The notes below the pieces were generated by a model that was not told where the DNA came from, made no database searches, and was given only the letters and a program-made list of their open reading frames with translations. A stretch of 62,440 bases of DNA, the filler included, from Globobulimina sp. (taxonomy: Eukaryota), in NCBI GenBank assembly GCA_003354225.1. It is 27 parts of 27 records of this genome, joined end to end, with 100 filler letters (N's around TTAATTAATTAA, not from the genome) between each part and the next. Parts side by side here need not be neighbours in the genome. Positions count along the whole stretch, not along the records: positions 20,860 to 23,076 come from PIVH01008134.1; 26 more parts are not named here. One strand, given 5' to 3'. The translations under genes were made by a program, and so were the position numbers. Shown in pieces: positions 4,385 to 46,432 of this stretch; the first letter of the stretch is position 1, and every line of letters begins with the position of its first letter.

Positions 4385-4825
4385 ATGTATAACTGAACGG
4401 TTATTTTAATTGTTTTAATGAGTACGTACTTAATTAATGACAATCATTTCTTTTTGACATTTGACTTTTTAGGCTTAAACTTCTAAACACTTCTTTTGTG
4501 ATTGGCAAGGTTTTTGGGTTAGCTAGAGTGGTTTTCNNNNNNNNNNNNNNNNNNNNNNNNNNNNNNNNNNNNNNNNNNNNTTAATTAATTAANNNNNNNN
4601 NNNNNNNNNNNNNNNNNNNNNNNNNNNNNNNNNNNNTCACAACAAAATCAATCGATATCAGTTTAACACTCTTTTTGTATAATATTTTTAACATAAAAAT
4701 TAATTGTCGCTTTTATACAATCTGTGCCTGTTCCATTTGGAAATTGTTTTGCCGATCCATTGACATTTCACGCTTAAATATTGTGTAGTTTTTCCCATTT
4801 TGAGTTGTCAGCGCTTTAATTGAGT

Positions 4826-9501: not shown

Positions 9502-11490
9502 ATGGATGAAAAAAAAGGAGAATTTCTCGAACAATCGCTAGCTTTGGATCGCGAAGTAATAACCGTTGGTTTAGGAGCATGTGGCAATCGGATCAGTTGT
9601 GGGTTTTGGAGAAACATATTAGATGAACATAGTTTAGACTTTGATGGCACAATAATTGAAACAGACATAAACGATGATTATATCGTGGACAACACCCGCA
9701 TTGGTACATATTTTCGTGAACTGAAAGACACTGCAAACAAATATGTGCCACGAAACATAATCTGCGATTTGGACATCACCACTATTGACAGTGTGCGTGC
9801 CTCCAATCTGGGTTCATTATTCAACGCCGATTCGTATATTTACGCCGGTAATTCTGCCAATAACTTATATTCATTAGGCTATAATTCATGTATTATCGAT
9901 GACATATTTGAGGAAATACGTTTAGAAGCCGAGAAATGTTCATCCGTCCAAGGCTTTAAATTATTACACTCCGTCGGTGGTGGTACAGGCAGTGGTTTAA
10001 CTGCATACTTATCGCAGCTATTAAAAGATGAATTTTATGACAGATTGATCACTTCCTACACTGTCTACCCATCCAATAAAGCCTCCGATATTGTGATCGA
10101 GCCATACAACATGGTCCTATCTATGCCTTCGTTACTGTCGTATCATGACATTAATGCCTGTATTGATAATGAGACCTTATTTGATATTTCATCGCGTTTG
10201 TTCCATAACGAACGGCCCAATTTCAGTGACTTGAATGAGTATATTTCGAATATTATATCCTCCTCAACCGCCGGTTTACGCTTTAAAGGTTCCTTAAATA
10301 TGGATTTACGTAAATTGGCAGTCAATGTCATACCTTTCCCGCGTTTGCATTTCTTATCCATTTCGGATGCACCGTTGATGTATAACCATAATAGGAAATA
10401 CACCAAAATCAATATTGATACGCTGATTACTGAATTATTCCATTCGCAACAGTTTTTGTCGCATAATGATGATGTTGAATATAGCAAATATTTAGCAGCC
10501 TCAGTCATATTTCGTGGACAGCCCAAGAATGAATTTAATATTCTATTGAATGAGTATGAAATTGAATATGGTTTAAAACGTGTTTTTGATGAATTGGGCA
10601 CCAAAATGATGTGTAATGAGCTTGGTTACAATGTATTACATTCGACATTGGTGTATCAGCCGTCGCAGTCTTATCCATTGACAGCAACGTTATTTGCCAA
10701 CAATACCAGGTATGTGCCCTATACATGAAACCACGTCGACTTCCAATGACAGTGCTATGCATTGACAGCATCGCCGGCTTATTTGCGCGAAATTTGACGC
10801 GTTTTATGAAGTTTTACCACAAGAAAGCTTTCGTGCAATATTACACTCAGAATGGAACGGGAGAGGAGGACTTCGAAGAAGCGATTCACGAAATTAAGGA
10901 TTTATTGGAGGAGTATAATGAGAAAGATTCTTCATTGCAATCCTGCTCTGATTACGAATTAAATACATCGAATCGCAAGAAATTGCAGAAGAATAATGTA
11001 TTTTGGTCGCAATTCAATAAGAAAAGGAAAGTAAAAAAGAAACGGAAAAGGAAATTTAAACCGGTGGTGAGGAAGAATAAGAAAGTTTATGTCAAATCGA
11101 ATAATAAACGGGTGGTTATTATAAGTCATTCGCGCAGACAGGAAATCAACAAAAATTATAAGAAAGCACAAAATAAACGAAAAAAAATGAAGAAAAAAAA
11201 CAAACAGAAACATAAAAGTGATAGTGATGGTTTTGAGGAGGAGTCGTCGTCTGATGATAGTAACTCTGATTCGACAAATTCTTCAAGTCATTCATCATCG
11301 GATACGGATAAGTCATCGGGTAATGATAGCAGTGATGGTTCGAGTGATGGCAGTTCGAACTCAGAGAGTGAGGATGATGAAAGTATCGATAATTCATCAG
11401 ATACGAATACAGATAGTAATAGTAATTCGGACGCGAATACAGATAAAGATACGAGCAGTGATTCTGAAAAAACTGATACTGATTCTGATG
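9502..11490 (+). CDS. Highly divergent beta-tubulin-like protein with long basic then acidic C-terminal tail (intron 10710-10768), 3' partial
   Basis: REVITVGLGACGNRI, YVPRNIICDLD, HSVGGGTGSG, IEPYN, DNETL and DLRKLAVNVIPFPRLHF. The intron joins NTS-IAGLF in phase to ORF 10725. Confidence 0.9.
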
Positions 11491-19205: not shown

Positions 19206-20759
19206 ATGTCTTGTACTCCACTAAGCTTCGCGATATCCACATACAATGCGGCAGGTTTAGGAGACGACAAAAAACGTAGAAAAGCTGGGCAATTTCTTAA
19301 ACGTTGGGGTGGAGATATTGTTTTATTACAGGAAACTCATGGATTACAGGATAATGAAATACTTTTAAAAGCTAACTTGCATTATGAAGAGGCACTGTTC
19401 AGTCATGGAAATAATAGGGCACGCGGGGTGGCCATTATGTGGAAAAAAAGACTAAACCTTAAAACAGACTGGCAGAAAACAGACAATGATGGCCGCTTGG
19501 CTGGATTAGGAGCAACAATAGAAGGGCAAAAAGTTGCCATATACTGCATTTATGCATCAAACTCAGATATTGAAAGAATAAGAAATTTTGAGCTTCTGGA
19601 ACAATGGCTAGATGAAAACAGAGAGCAAGATAGAAAAATAATAATTGGAGGGGACTTCAACGTGACTACAAACCCTGAAATGGATAGAATTGGCTCAACA
19701 GAACAATTAGGTATTACACAATCAGGGAGGCATCTTCGTTATATGACAGAAAGGAGAAGTTTGGTAGATGCTTGGAGAAGACTGAATCCACGATCTAGGC
19801 AGACAACTTGGTCAAGGCCAAATGTAACCTGTAGAACTAGACTGGACCGTTTTTATGTAGAAACTGATTTCTCTTCAGCCATAAAAGATGTTAAGATTTG
19901 TGCTAAAGGGGTGTCTGACCATAATCTAGTAAAAATGAAAATAGAAACATATAGATATGTGATTAGAGGAAAGGGCCACTTTAAAATGAATACCAGTCTG
20001 CTTAAACTACCAGATTATCAGACAAAAATGAGGGAATTATTTACGGAGGTTGAACGGGAAGTTGAAGAAGCTAGAATAACTGATAAAAGAGTTGCTTGGG
20101 ACTATCTAAAAATGCGAATAAGAGATGAAACGATGCAATATTCAAAACAATTAGCAAAAGAGCGGAAACAGCAAGAAAATAGGTTGTATGAAGAATTAAT
20201 GGATTTGGAAAAAAAGATCGATGAAACATTGTCAGATGAAGTAATAAATCAATACAGAGTTATCATACAACAATTAGATGAATTTTTAGATATCAAAGCA
20301 GCGGGTGCAGCGATTCGAGCAAAAGCCAACTGGGCAGCCTTTGGGGAAAAAAACACAAAGTATTTTTATGATTTGGAAAAACGGCAAATGACAAACACAA
20401 CAATTTGGGAATTAGCAGAAGAAAATGGAAATGTCATAACAAAATTTAGTGAAGTACAGAATACAATTGAAACATATCATAGAAGCTTATATAGAGCTAC
20501 AAATAACAATAGAGATGTACAAACAAAGGAAGCATTTCTGAATCATGGAGAAATACCAAGCATTACAGCCAGTCAACGGGAATCATTGGAACAACCTATA
20601 AGAGCCATGGAATTAAAAGATGCTTTGATGAGCATGAAAGATAATAAAACTCCTGGGAGTGATTCCATTCCCGCTGAATTTTACAAATATTTCTGGCCTG
20701 AACTTGAAAATAAAATGCTTGAGTTATTTCATGAAATAAAAAGACAAGGAAAATTAACA
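19206..20759 (+). mobile_element. Non-LTR retrotransposon ORF2 (L1/Tx1-like): APE endonuclease and start of the RT region, 3' partial
   Basis: TYNAAGL, DIVLLQETH, GVAI, IIGGDFN, DAWR, RLDRFY, SDH, GEKNTKYF and KTPGSDSIPAEFYK motifs. Confidence 0.95.
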
Positions 20760-20859: not shown

Positions 20860-23076
20860 TGGTTGTCAGATTCAGATTTATGGTTTGTGATTAATGATTT
20901 ATCGAATTCTGTGTTCTATATTATTTATGTTATTTTTTTGATAACAAGTGATGTGATGAACATATCATATCCAATTTACTTTAATATTTTGTTAATATTA
21001 GTAATTCTGGGCATATCTGAATTGAATTTATAAACGTCAGAATCGCAAGCACAAGACTGTGATACGTACAATTTTCTTTCCTGTCCTTGCGGACAAACCA
21101 AATTGGTCAACCGGGAAAGAAAAAAGACCTCACTTCACAGCAAAGCACCCAAAAAAGAAACAAAAAATAAAAACAACAAAGCAAAAAGAAATAAAATAAA
21201 GCACCAATACATCCAGATCACAATCTGAGCAACACCGAGGATAGGACAATAACCTAAACAAAGGTGAGTATAGCCCAAATCAGGCAGGAAGCACAGTACC
21301 AGACCATTCGTAGCAAACCGAGGTAACAAGAAAAGCAACATCCAGGCAATAAAAGAGCAATGAGCACCAGATGTAAGATGCAAGATCCATACCTAAGGTA
21401 ACAATGTCTCCAATATACTGATATAAGAGGGAGATGCAATACCATCTCCCAATAATAGATCCTAATATAAAATAATACCATTTTTGATTGTTTCATGGTT
21501 TATTTACTTAGTCATGGATCAGATGACGAGATGTCAATTATTTAAATTCAGGAAAATTAAATAATGCAGGATAAGATATACCAAATAGAGATCATTAATA
21601 AATATCCAGGAATAAGAAAGTTGACAGTTTTACCATAGTGACAATAGGATAGAAGATTCATGGGAAACAAAACTAATACATAACAGAAACATTCCAGGAT
21701 GTATATACATATCGACCAAGAAAAACATATTTACAAATTTAATACAAGATCCAAATAGATACATGAACCATAGGATTATTGCAGAAGGTAAGCATAAACC
21801 ATCACGATCATTACAAAATAAGGTGAATAATACCAATAGTACCAAAGAGCAATAAGAATAACGAGCGTCAACAATGAAGACAATGGCACAGGATAAGTGA
21901 GGAGGTGATGTCCTACATCAGAAAGACATCCCCCGAATAAATGTAGCTTTGTCACGATGAAAGAAAGGTACAAAGTGATCATAATAAAGAAGTATATAAA
22001 TCCTAGCGCCATATCACCAAAGTAATAATCACAGAAGCAGTAACTTAAGTAATTGTAAAGGAAAGATATAATCATGGGAAACAAATATACATTCCGACGA
22101 AATAGCCCACAAAGGCAATTAATAAAATTTGCAATACCCGAGGCAATTAATAAAAAGATGCATATGATAGAGACCAAGGATAAAATAATGTAAATAGCAG
22201 AATCCAAAGTAACCAATAATAAGGACGAAATGACAGAAATAGCAGAATCCAAAGTAATAACAGAAATAACCCAACAGTAACCAATAATAAGGACGAAATG
22301 ACAAGCAATACTACCAATAATAAGGACGAAAAACAGAGAGAGCAATGGTACATAAAAAGAAATGAAGGGGACATCCTATAAAAAGACATCCCCCGAAAAA
22401 TGTGTTTTTTTACAGTGCTCGCAAGGAACAAAGTAAATAGAATGGAGGAAAACAGTGACCTTGTCTTCCAATTACCAAAGTAATAACTCCATGAACTAAT
22501 ACTTGACGCCTGGCGAAAATAGAATAGAATCATGGGAAACAGGATTCGTTACCGAAAGACCAAGGTGATGAGAAATAGGATAGGAAATAACCGAGATGTA
22601 AAATAATGCATTTGCGAATGATACAGTGGGGGTGTATGACTAGTACCACCCCCTATGGTATTATGAGAAACGCAAAAACGAATTAATGTTGCGTTTATAT
22701 TGATAAGGAGACAAATATGTCGTACCAACTGTAATAATGATATAACCAAGCAGTACTAATTATAGACCAATCGTACTGAGCCCACACATCGGAGAAAGAT
22801 ACCAAAAGGCAATGCCATGAATTGAGGCTTAAAATTATTATCAGAGACCCAAATACCAAATAACTAATGGCAAAAACAACAGCAGGACAGGAGAGAAACC
22901 GTAAAATATGGATAGCACAGCCAACATCCAGGTCATGGGAGAATAGGATTGACGGGAGAATAATTCATGGTTGTCAGATTCAGATTTATGGTTTGTGATT
23001 AATGATTTATCGAATTCTGTGTTCTATATTATTTATGTTATTTTTTTGATAACAAGTGATGTGATGAACATATCAT
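20860..23076. other. Probable circular (or tandem-unit) contig, 2108-bp unit, exact 109-bp terminal direct repeat
   Basis: 20860-20968 is identical to 22968-23076. The + strand is strongly A-rich and T-poor; no recognisable gene. Confidence 0.8.
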
Positions 23077-28154: not shown

Positions 28155-29815
28155 TTACTGCTTGCCGCAAGAACAGACACCATTTTGAAATACATGTTTT
28201 TTGTTTGGGTCAATACATATAATCTTGACATCAGAACAATTCTTTGAAACACAACAAAAAAATGTATGACAATCATAACACATTCTCATTGACACATTTA
28301 TCGCAATGTGGTTTACATTTTTATCCATTAAAAATGCCAAAGCTCTTTTCTCTGCGTGGTAAGATAACATTTTATTTGCATATTCATCGGAAAACTCATA
28401 TTCCTCATTCAACATTCGGACTTCTGGATGTTTACACGTATCAACTGTATGGCCAACTTTTGCAATTAATTTGTCTGTTATTTCATTATAATTATAAATC
28501 AGCTCATCATCATTTTTATGGTATGTATTATCTAACACATACTCTCTATCATCGTATACAAATTTGGCATAAACCTGTCTGATATCATTGATTGTTTCCA
28601 ATAATGGCCATAAAACAGATTGCAATTCATAATGATTTGCAATGCATGCAATTCGATAAAAATGTTTTTTGCGATCATCGTTTACTTCCTTCCAATCGTT
28701 TACATATTTTATGGTTTGATTCAATGCTTTCATTTGATACTTATCCCTCTTTTCAAAAGTGGTTAAAATTGTTAATGACTCAATATCCGGTTTGTTATAG
28801 TTATCATATTCCATCCACATTTTGTCAAACTGAGACAAATGACCATACGCTGTCAATATTTGATGATAACAAAATCTATTTATTTTTAAATCAGTTTCGT
28901 TTAATTCATCAATTAACGCATTGACTAAATCCAATTTATTACATTGATATGCGGCCATAATCGCGAATGAATAACAGAGTGTGTTTGGTTTAATTGCGTA
29001 TTCGGAGTGCGATGTTATTTGATTCCAAATTGTTTCCACTGTTTCGGACTTGCCACTTTTTATTAATCCATCTAAAATACCGCAAAATATGTAAGTATCA
29101 AGCAATTTGTGGTGCGAATCCAATAATATCTCTCGCAGCAACACATCAAATGCATCAAAATCGGAAACTATTTGTATTTAATATTTAGTTTAATAGAAAC
29201 GAAACAGTGTAATGAAATAAATAAATCTTTACCTTTAAGAACAGCATTTATTAATATTGACATTGTATAACAATCAGGTGACACATTACATGTTTTCATG
29301 TCGTTGTATTCATCCAACATTGATTGGATATTATTGATTCTAGCAAATGCACCAATTAATCCATTCCATTTTCGGGTATCCATATCGAGCAAAAATTTAT
29401 TTTTCATTTCATAAGCAAATAATTTGACATTGTCACAATGTAAACATTTGCTCGCTGCTTTAATCAGCAAATTATAACAGCCAACGTCTGGTTTAATGTC
29501 ATTATTAATTACAAAATGGTTCCATACTTTTTCATAAAAATACGTTTTGCTTTTACTTTTTAAACAAGAATGTAGCATTGATGACAATGAATAATGTGTT
29601 AGTTCTACATTATTGTTTCGCATTTCATTCAATAATTCCAAACTTGCGTCAATTTCCCCTTTTTTTGATAATTTCCATAAATGTTTTTCATATTTCATAC
29701 GATCTGGTATCTGTTCTGTATGTACCAACATAGTGCATAATGAATTGTATATTGTTGTTAGGAGTATTTGCTTTTTGTAGCTCATGCATTTTACAAACAA
29801 AGTGAAAGTTTTCAT
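28155..29815 (-). CDS. PPR protein with C-terminal DYW-type deaminase domain (intron 29232-29168)
   Basis: ~35-aa PPR repeats (IKPDVGCYNLLIKA, WNGLIGAFAR, VSPDCYTMSILINA, IKPNTLCYSFAIMA). C-terminus LSYHAEKRALAF...MRMCYDCHTFF...D...HVFQNGVCSC. The intron joins the two ORFs in phase (LK-V-SDFDAF). Confidence 0.92.
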
Positions 29816-35271: not shown

Positions 35272-37073
35272 TATTTGTGTTTGATGATTGTTAAAAACTT
35301 GAGCACTTCACTAGAAAAGCAATGTGCACTGAATAAAAAAATGATGCATTTGCGAATTGCTGTATCATTACTATGTATATGGAAACATATCAAAAACAAT
35401 AATGTTCCGGGATTAATCTATCAACCGTTGATTATGGATTATGGCGCATTCCATCGGGAGTTCGTAACTTTCATTAAACGGATTGGAAAATTAAGAGCGG
35501 CAAATCTAAACGTTGAGGAATCGGAATCTATTGTATATTGTTTTCAATACATTTCAGCAAAGTTACATAAAGCTAACGCTGTCTCACTGTTACATCATTA
35601 TTATATTTACAATCAAGAACAATTATAATAAAATAGTATTTGAGGAATTTGTCAGTATTGCAACCAATCTAACATGTCACTTATTTAATTTACTTATTTT
35701 CTTTTTGACTATTTCTTTTATGTGTTATGAGTGACTTATTGTGTTATCATCTTGTTACATTGTTACGAGAGTGATTATTTATTAAAGGTTGTATTTGCAA
35801 TCTAGTTAAGTGCTTTTATGCCAATCTTAAGGTATTTCCCATCAACGCTACGTATTGCGCTTTAATATATCGAAGAATTAAAAACAAGACACAGTATTAT
35901 CAAATATTGATTCTCCTTTAAATTAAAGCACCAAAATGTAACAAACAGAATCTGAGGGTGACATTCTCATATCATCCATCATCTAAACAAAATAATAAAA
36001 AAAAAAGAATTGTAAGCTAGAAATTGAATCAAAATTCATAACATTTATCACAAAAATGATTGCCTCAAGCAATACGGATAAAATCCTGGCAAAATCTGAT
36101 TTAAATAATGTGGAAAAAGAGAAAACATATAACTGAACAATTAACAAATGTGGAAATAGATTAAAAATCGAGCACAAAATTCCCATGCAATATTCATTTA
36201 AACAGTACATGAAATACCAATATTCATTCACGCCAGGATTTGAACCTGAATTCCATACATAAAAACAGCGCTCTACCACAGAAAACGCTAATAGGCATAG
36301 CCAGATCACTTCACACCATCCTTTCGTCAACATTGTGTGTCTGTTTTATTGATCAAATAGAGTCGTATTAAGGTAATTAAGAGACCCTGACCTCTCAGCT
36401 GATAATATTGTGTATTTATGTGTTTTTGAAATGTAGAAATTGATGTAATTTATCCCGTATTAAGACCGCCAGAATTTCTATCTCCTCTCTCAATATTAAT
36501 TCAAATACAAAATAAAAAACATATTCTATAATATAAACACTTTCTTGACAGATTAAAGCAAAAAAAATTCAATATATTAAATTTAATGGATAAAATTAGG
36601 AAAACGAATTGGAGTTAAATTGGACAGCTGGTTGAATTGGAATTCGATTCAATTGAAATGAATTGAAATGAAATGAATTGGATAAATAATTGAAGTGTGG
36701 TAAAGATGAGAGATATTTTATGGTTATAAAGAGGAGAGATATTTTATGATTATAAAGAGGAGATAGGAAAAATGAGGATGATGCTTCTTGTAATGCAATA
36801 ATGGCAGTTGCTTGGAAGCGTAAATCATTTTTAAAATCACCAGCAAGGAAAAAAGGATAAATAAAAATTTGAGATGGATGAAAATTAGATTGAATTGTAT
36901 GGGATTAGATTAGAAAAAAATAGATTTGGATGAATTGGATGAAAATGAATGTTTGATGGTTTTGATGATGGCGNNNNNNNNNNNNNNNNNNNNNNNNNNN
37001 NNNNNNNNNNNNNNNNNTTAATTAATTAANNNNNNNNNNNNNNNNNNNNNNNNNNNNNNNNNNNNNNNNNNNN

Positions 37074-45889: not shown

Positions 45890-46344
45890 TTGTGCAACTT
45901 TATGAGCTAGCTATAGATTATATTGCAAACTCGAAAATTATTTTAGACCCGAAGACATGATTTGAGCTGAAGAACACGTACGATAAAAACTCTGCATCAT
46001 ATCTAACTTGGTCATTTTTACTGTTTTACATCACAAATCACAACAAATCAAGAACATATTATACTATGGAATACATATCGAGTGCCGCTTCATTCAAAAT
46101 CATCATAATCATATAGAGTTAAGGTATTGTATTACGGTTATTTACATATAAAATCTCCGTCTATTTGTATGCATAAAACGAAAAGTTTTGATTCTGTGCA
46201 GCTAAAATATTAATAAATAGTGGCTGCATTACCGTCNNNNNNNNNNNNNNNNNNNNNNNNNNNNNNNNNNNNNNNNNNNNTTAATTAATTAANNNNNNNN
46301 NNNNNNNNNNNNNNNNNNNNNNNNNNNNNNNNNNNNTTCGTTTC

Positions 46345-46432
46345 GTTTTTGGGTTAGCTAGAGTGGTTTTGAACCTAGTATTCGAAGTTGACCTAGTATT
46401 CGCTCCACTTTTGGAAATTGACCTAGTATTCG
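46345..46432. repeat. Interspersed repeat end: 26 bp shared with 4510-4535, followed by three ACCTAGTATTCG copies
   Basis: gtttttgggttagctagagtggtttt lies at the ends of two unrelated contigs. The 12-mer starts at 46373, 46391 and 46421. Confidence 0.75.

Follow-up and report, generated by a model that had tools for sequence, protein, structure and literature searches.

A circular-mapping, non-coding 2108-bp element with putative structured-RNA modules in a Globobulimina sp. assembly

The stretch of DNA analysed here (the window) comprises 62,440 nucleotides, filler included, of the Globobulimina sp. assembly GCA_003354225.1, and this report concerns one of its contigs, PIVH01008134.1, located at positions 20860 to 23076. 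According to our favoured reading, which we hold with about even confidence, this contig represents one unit of a lineage-specific, multi-copy, non-coding host element that carries structured-RNA modules and follows itself head to tail. The window is composed of 27 size-sorted contigs of 2214 to 2218 bp each, separated by artificial spacers of the form N...TTAATTAATTAA...N. Because the contigs were sorted by size and joined artificially, neighbours in the window carry no linkage information.

The contig is 2217 bp long and its terminal 109 bases are identical (20860-20968 and 22968-23076), which leaves a unit of 2108 bp and bears out the exact terminal repeat and unit length reported by an earlier inspection of the DNA, the sequence-only reading. 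It is the only one of the 27 contigs with a terminal overlap of any kind, and an exact end match of this length by chance is impossible. Exact end overlaps are the usual sign of an assembler closing a cycle at the k-mer length, and in a clean assembly cycle a homogeneous tandem array and a circle look alike. The two parts of the contig are:

20860-22967, no strand assigned: complete 2108-bp unit of the element that maps as a circle, defined by the 109-bp end overlap; GC 0.344, AT skew 0.31.
22968-23076, no strand assigned: assembler overlap repeating 20860-20968 (100% over 109 nt, spacing 2108), with no extra sequence.

On the plus strand, the base composition of the unit is strongly asymmetric (A 0.429, T 0.226), and the AT skew reaches 0.37 over 21037-22962, whereas it flips to -0.22 in the 177 bp from 20860 to 21036, where the GC content is 24%. 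The A-rich, T-poor plus strand had been described as unlike that of any other contig; its skew is indeed the highest in the window, but the difference is one of degree, as the runner-up contig reaches 0.21 as a whole and 0.23 in its best 1900-bp stretch. The overall GC content of 34% is the same as that of the nuclear contigs of the window.

Related molecules, for which the sequence-only reading had suggested a search, do exist. A 199-codon frame on the minus strand (21776-22375) has one relative among 1.84 billion representatives, the predicted 234-amino-acid protein P0001, on a single contig of 1415 bp (L001, PIVX01000194.1) that is filed under a gammaproteobacterial, Legionellales-like metagenome-assembled genome (MAG), designated G001. 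From its base 46 to its end, L001 aligns to the minus strand of the unit from 22962 to 21489, with 75.9% identity over 1496 columns. A second G001 contig, L003 (2377 bp), matches 21440-21037 over approximately 340 bp, with identities of 92% in a stretch of 118 nt and 85% in one of 71 nt, between flanks unrelated to the unit. The right flank begins inside a repeat of ~190 bp that is present in at least five other G001 contigs, and other L003 repeats recur on a contig whose UCH-like open reading frame (ORF) weakly matches ubiquitin hydrolase. The two halves of the ~190-bp repeat lie at 1003-1066 and 2282-2377 of L003 and are contiguous in at least four other G001 contigs (L025, L027, L028 and L022); in L003, the circle-like core directly adjoins the right half, and the two have a CTG in common where they meet.

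The homology ends delimit a spacer in the unit, since L001 stops at 22962 and L003 stops at 21037, and two further segments differ between the unit and its relatives:

20860-21036, no strand assigned: AT-rich spacer, GC 24%, with reversed skew (-0.22 versus +0.37 elsewhere), unalignable to L001 or L003.
21147-21228, plus strand: A-rich low-complexity tract, missing from L003 (gap in the L003 alignment; Tandem Repeats Finder rows 21150-21203).
22176-22335, no strand assigned: short direct repeats (families D4 and D5) with three copies of ACCAATAATAAGGACGAAA, mostly deleted in L001 (gaps of 37 and 43 nt in alignment A2).

These relatives were binned wrongly with a bacterium. In a comparison that took in two of three parts, G001 was found to share short repeats, 94-99% identical, with the ends of eukaryotic contigs of the window, and it carries paralogues of a window ORF with a DYW deaminase domain. 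For these two reasons we consider G001 to be contaminated by a eukaryote related to the window host, and the element is therefore assigned to the eukaryotic lineage. The shared repeats are located at 46119-46236, 4461-4536, 46345-46402 and 36783-36832 of the window and match G001 contigs L010, L011, L012 and L006 at 94-99%; such contig-end repeats are probably the termini of a mobile element common to two related eukaryotes. The DYW paralogues are encoded on contigs L008 and L009, with 67-74% identity.

If both samples contained the same bacterial symbiont, a small plasmid of it, or a circle of phage or satellite type, would account for the filing of L001 and L003 in a gammaproteobacterial MAG and for the use of TGA as a sense codon by the gene caller, and a passage in PMC9418006 describes such bacteria as inhabitants of protists. 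This origin is nevertheless very improbable, given that some contigs of the MAG are eukaryotic and related to the window host and that the only other genome of that bacterial order lacks the element (a match in one of two genomes, G001). Moreover, blastn searches with the contig gave no match among 72,556 plasmid or 50,697 phage records, scans of the contig for sigma-70 promoters and terminators stayed at shuffle level, and neither a Rep protein nor an RNA I/II-type origin was detected.

The unit is non-coding, because alignment gaps break the frame, substitutions are neutral with respect to codon phase, a TGA lies in frame and codon periodicity is lacking. Three different minus-strand frames of the unit are needed to align P0001, and 13 of the 17 internal gaps between the unit and L001 are frame-breaking, the other four being multiples of three. 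The longest block free of gaps spans 286 nt at 85% identity; its substitutions are distributed 11/16/16 over the codon positions, and there are 8 synonymous codon changes versus 8.5 expected. The L001 frame holds an in-frame TGA in this same block, which the gene caller evidently took as sense; with TGA as sense, the 199-codon frame itself has a P value of 0.17. Periodicity is absent except over the short-repeat stretch 22070-22470. Alternative readings of the stop codons, compared in 12 tests, yielded P values of 0.01-0.04 at best and no frame that convinces, a second minus-strand frame of 133 amino acids has no relative, and the largest ORF on the plus strand does not exceed 56 amino acids. 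No Pfam family was found above the cut-off in the eight longest minus-strand frames, the sub-threshold hits being Filo_VP24 (E 0.086) and ORF28 (E 0.11), a result consistent with the earlier statement that no Rep, capsid or transposase motif is present. The molecule is thus not merely gene-poor, as the sequence-only reading had it, but non-coding, and the hydrophobic coding-like text noticed on its complement is a by-product of T-richness.

The T-rich minus strand carries a recurrent motif, TGTTTCCCATGA, in three exact copies and one variant (starting at 21658, 22072, 22530 and 22933), all four containing CCCATGA; elsewhere in the window, only one unrelated site with one mismatch was found. 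Old paralogues follow motifs 2 and 3, and the gaps in their alignment are not multiples of three. The copies are:

21658-21669, minus strand: motif TGTTTCCCATGA, copy 1, conserved in L001.
22072-22083, minus strand: motif TGTTTCCCATGA, copy 2, conserved in L001.
22530-22541, minus strand: motif TGTTTCCCATGA, copy 3, replaced by TGGTACCCATGA in L001.
22933-22944, minus strand: variant motif TTCTCCCATGAC, copy 4, with a CCCATGA core identical in L001.

These motifs raise the question of small hydrophobic peptides made from the T-rich strand, starting at the ATG in CCCATGA. An ATG is present in all four motifs, the frame after motif 4 is open for 31 codons in both elements, and the 199-codon open frame is unexpected under the standard code (P ~0.004). 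However, the L001 frame that follows motif 3 runs into a stop after 8 codons, the second frame is without relative, and the 13 frame-breaking gaps, the phase-neutral substitutions, the stop within the L001 frame and the lack of periodicity apply here as well. To judge from the sequences compared, the peptide-coding reading appears already largely refuted, and we regard it as barely credible.

Conservation between the unit and its relatives is block-wise. Identity along the L001 alignment is uneven (P 0.0035, gaps excluded), with peaks at 21921-21970 (98%), 21489-21548 (97%), 21680-21729 (92%) and 22071-22120 (90%), and the most conserved part of the L003 match is a core of 118 bp. This core folds into a 10-bp outer stem around two small hairpins, one of which is GUCC-GCAA-GGAC, with an energy of -37 kcal/mol and z values of -2.3 on the minus and -2.0 on the plus strand. 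The conserved blocks are:

21037-21154, minus strand: core of highest conservation, in which inverted repeats I5, I8 and I9 are nested, 92% identical over 118 nt to L003 889-1006.
21229-21440, minus strand: core flank with lower identity to L003 (85% over the 71 nt of 21229-21298, weaker to ~21440) and a hairpin GGGAGATG...CATCTCCC (I3).
21489-21548, minus strand: 60-nt block, 97% identical to L001, with AATAAA on the minus strand (gapless block of alignment A2).

Three double-hairpin modules were recognized in the remainder of the unit, and the second stem of the double hairpin is G5...C5 in all of them:

21893-21987, minus strand: double-hairpin module M1, 82.5 bits with covariance model R1 (training sequence), 98% identical to L001 over 21921-21970.
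22356-22446, minus strand: double-hairpin module M2, 88.5 bits with R1 (training sequence).
22617-22703, minus strand: double-hairpin module M3, 67.2 bits with R1 (training sequence), with hairpins I2 and I7, conserved in L001.

The hairpins covary. In hairpin B, 54 of the 60 cells are paired over three modules in two elements, a value reached by 5 of 500 shuffles (slid controls, 48-67%), bearing in mind that these statistics come from six related sequences and that relatedness alone can beat a shuffle control. Two pairs of this hairpin changed on both sides and seven cells are G·U. Double changes maintain 5 of the 42 pairs in the consensus fold of M1 and M2, and 8 of the 17 pairs in the consensus of all six double hairpins. 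When model R1 was run over the window and 21 loci, only its six training sequences scored and the next best match had an E value of 0.32, so that no further copy was recovered. For the M2 hairpin, the folding energy is -17.3 kcal/mol on the minus but only -8.0 on the plus strand. Since the hairpins tolerate G·U pairs but not the mirror C·A pairs, we infer an RNA from the minus strand, and the hairpin signals modestly suggest that the T-rich strand would be the one transcribed.

The favoured reading may be put together as follows. Units succeeding one another head to tail would close the assembly graph as a cycle of 2108 bp. The unit may have grown by old duplications of a module of ~400-460 bp, the CCCATGA motif having been kept in each module and the double hairpin in three. 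Its minus strand would be transcribed into a U-rich RNA, in which the hairpins may act, for instance as processing or stability signals, and the 118-bp core and, next to it, the AT-rich spacer in which the skew is reversed would form a candidate control region, either promoter or origin. We lean towards a repeat of the host nucleus because of the nuclear-like composition, the sub-repeats, the strand asymmetry and the presence of a core fragment in the nuclear-looking DNA of L003, and a tandem, satellite-like nuclear array is somewhat more likely than a free circle.

Several points weigh against this reading. Both the copy number and the tandem arrangement are deduced from the assembled sequence, as are the transcription and any role of the RNA. 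None of the other 26 contigs shows sequence similarity to 20860-23076, and no sister circle, for which the sequence-only reading had suggested a search of the assembly, is present among them. A plain satellite accounts less well for the block-wise conservation between species than functional RNA genes or a replicon would. L003, moreover, may be a chimera produced by metagenome assembly. Judged by the standard code, the length of the 199-codon frame surpasses that found in 99.6% of Markov shuffles, and the relatedness of the six sequences bears on the hairpin statistics, as stated above. Finally, the opposite strand of M3 folds as well or better (-17.5 versus -14.8 kcal/mol).

The same cycle might instead be an extrachromosomal, non-coding, plasmid-like circle of the host, maintained by host enzymes, with the core and the AT-rich spacer as its origin, a skew that results from asymmetric replication or transcription, and an integrated fragment in the form of the L003 core; the sequence-only reading had likewise named an unknown plasmid-like element as an option. 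We regard this as a possibility to be taken seriously, though a distinctly minor one. It is favoured by the clean, isolated cycle with an overlap of k-mer length, by the position of a conserved core beside a fast-evolving AT-rich segment in which the skew flips, by the block-wise conservation across two sources, and by the coincidence of the L001 end with the start of core-type homology, as if the core were common to several molecules. It is weakened by the lack of a replication protein or a known RNA-primed origin in the Pfam and Rfam searches, by skew switches only 177 bp apart, unlike those of a bidirectional replicon, by the nuclear-looking context of the L003 core and by the absence of a sister circle among the window contigs; tandem arrays, moreover, give an identical assembly picture. 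A bolder version, which we put forward as a tentative proposal only, envisages, in an amoeboid or flagellate protist lineage with few sampled members, a family of small protein-free circles that might be maintained by the 118-bp cruciform core, would express U-rich double-hairpin RNAs and would sometimes integrate core fragments, that is, a eukaryotic "RNA-only" plasmid.

The L003 fragment can also be viewed as a solo repeat or fragment of a mobile element, in which case the contig would be a collapsed non-autonomous copy, either a terminal-repeat retroelement folding into a cycle or a Helitron-like element. Helitrons are recognized by a 5' TC, a 3' hairpin followed by CTRR and insertion between A and T, whereas retroelements with long terminal repeats have TG...CA ends, a tRNA primer site and a polypurine tract; retroelements usually have an A-rich sense strand. 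In agreement with a mobile origin, a segment of ~400 bp (21037 to ~21470) stands alone amid unrelated sequence in L003, L001 breaks at its edge, the A-rich strand resembles a retroelement sense strand, and the L003 homology ends in ...CTGA, 7 nt past an imperfect hairpin of 13 bp, which recalls a Helitron 3' end. The hairpin before CTGA lies within 21037-21091, but a 5' TC is found in L001 only and the base that follows CTGA is C or G, not T. Neither TG...CA ends nor a tRNA-type primer site or polypurine tract was seen when the edges of 21037-21490 were read by eye on both strands, and there are no terminal inverted repeats. In addition, the G·U pairs indicate the T-rich strand as the RNA, and dispersed copies would not yield an unbranched, isolated cycle. 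Non-autonomous Helitrons and terminal-repeat retroelements resemble the unit in the absence of an ORF, the size of ~2 kb, the boundary hairpin with CTGA and the isolated fragment at another locus, and differ from it in that most hallmarks were not found by inspection and the 5' TC occurs in one of two elements. A mobile element seems unlikely.

The sequence-only reading had suggested an organellar minichromosome or a guide-RNA-bearing circle of the host or of a co-sequenced protist. Such a minicircle would be of the kinetoplast, diplonemid or dinoflagellate-plastid type and would carry guide RNAs or a gene fragment. The size, the circular map and the combination of one conserved region with a more variable remainder recall such molecules, and the host encodes a DYW deaminase domain of the kind found in organelle RNA-editing proteins. 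However, DYW proteins carry out C-to-U editing without guide RNAs. Conserved sequence block 3 (CSB-3) is a universal 12-mer of kinetoplast minicircles; with up to two mismatches allowed, it has no match in the contig and four in the whole window. No organellar gene, rRNA or tRNA was detected, the GC content equals that of the nuclear contigs, the core also lies between nuclear-looking repeats in L003, and no sister circle is present in the window. As for the plastid circles of dinoflagellates, neither a plastid gene nor an rRNA was matched in Pfam or Rfam, and the core is shared with L003, a contig from another source that need not be circular, but with none of the 26 other window contigs. The likeness to kinetoplast minicircles is one of layout only (a small circular map, a conserved region of ~120 bp, a variable rest and repeated cassettes on one strand); CSB-3 is missing, the host genes do not look kinetoplastid, the composition is nuclear and the core also occurs in nuclear-like DNA. 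The organellar proposal is unsupported, and we consider it most improbable.

Searches of the contig for other known families were likewise negative. Rfam gave no match at E values up to 1, including the hammerhead and other self-cleaving ribozymes of retrozymes and Penelope-type elements, and no tRNA was found by the scans at default settings; ARAGORN with mitochondrial settings predicted no gene, the 46 "genes" obtained at a lowered threshold only being noise. A hairpin loop containing NANTATTAC is a hallmark of circular Rep-encoding single-stranded DNA (CRESS-DNA) viruses and circular single-stranded DNA satellites. Two minus-strand matches to this nonanucleotide occur in the contig (22022-22029 and 22731-22738), neither of them in the loop of a listed inverted repeat, and no HUH Rep family of the CRESS-DNA type was found by Pfam in the eight longest frames, nor does the plus strand contain an ORF of more than 56 amino acids. 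A 20-mer from the core occurs in five metagenome contigs (L014 to L018, JGI) and in no viral contig. All that these five have in common with the core is 22 identical nt that form a GTCC-loop-GGAC hairpin; otherwise they represent one unrelated element with 44-47% GC, so that the match is probably due to chance. In these contigs, the shared stretch is located just downstream of a tRNA-like T-arm. A gapped motif pattern had no match among metagenome and viral contigs. A limited search of the literature on small circles and satellites of bdelloids and heteroloboseans brought up nothing resembling the unit.

Among known systems, complex satellites and tandem small-RNA gene clusters come nearest to the unit. 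Complex satellite DNA and higher-order tandem repeats share with it the non-coding, self-following organization, the diverged sub-repeats of ~400-460 bp, the A/T strand asymmetry and the presence, in a related genome, of similar copies that have diverged. In contrast, the unit is long (2.1 kb) and its array is inferred, and the covarying hairpins, the block-wise conservation and the 92% core suggest function over simple homogenisation. The arrays of small nucleolar RNA (snoRNA), 5S and spliced-leader genes of protists have repeat units of ~0.5-2 kb. Such tandem small-RNA gene clusters are similar in that several structured RNAs lie on one strand between fast-evolving spacers, whereas the unit matches no Rfam family, C/D or H/ACA boxes were unconvincing by eye and the RNA strand would be unusually U-rich. 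The circular rDNA element of Naegleria (CERE), as presented in the abstract of PMC7714845, was the one known heterolobosean circle that the literature search brought up. Here, too, the genome is that of an amoeboid, AT-rich protist, and the extrachromosomal circle contains non-coding sequence full of repeats; it measures ~15.8 kb and carries rRNA genes, whereas the unit is 2.1 kb long and has no rRNA.

The other contigs of the window are AT-rich (GC ~30-35%), and uninterrupted frames of 400-737 amino acids are common. Long open frames encode inward-rectifier and voltage-gated channels, tubulins and a P2X receptor, and further domains include leishmanolysin, RPC5, SSRP1, PH/RGS/FHA, an endonuclease domain of the non-LTR (long terminal repeat) retrotransposon kind and the DYW deaminase domain. 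Their source is an AT-rich, intron-poor eukaryote with a DYW-type pentatricopeptide repeat (PPR) gene. The P2X frame has only eight relatives, the best being 84% identical (EukProt) and none coming from NCBI. The DYW nucleic-acid deaminase domain (E 4.7e-15) is located in an ORF at 28155-29144 on the minus strand, an organelle RNA-editing factor of the plant type although the host is not a plant; the cluster nearest to this frame (Atlas) is rotifer-rich. An excerpt of PMC4202320 reports DYW-type PPR proteins outside plants in rotifers, Naegleria, Acrasis and Physarum. In view of the few P2X relatives and the many long frames free of introns, a bdelloid rotifer was abandoned as the host in favour of what may be a protist of an undersampled, intron-poor kind. 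The long ORF with the endonuclease/exonuclease/phosphatase domain (19206-20759, plus strand) has a sub-threshold match to the Pfam family "Endonuclease-reverse transcriptase", the endonuclease part of a non-LTR retrotransposon, and runs off the contig end that adjoins 20860-23076 in the window. A divergent tubulin-like gene (9502-11490, plus strand) has a long C-terminal extension without family match and a candidate intron of ~60 nt (GTATGT...ACAG) near 10710-10769.

Whatever the nature of the element, public "hydrophobic ORFs" such as the 234-amino-acid MAG protein P0001 are artefacts of T-richness, and a public Legionellales-like MAG also carries eukaryotic contamination. If the contig represents a free circle, it would be a eukaryotic replicon without any protein gene, which is rare. 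If it is only a satellite, it would be a complex repeat with sub-blocks and hairpins kept between species, a hint that the repeat is transcribed and functional in this little-sampled protist.

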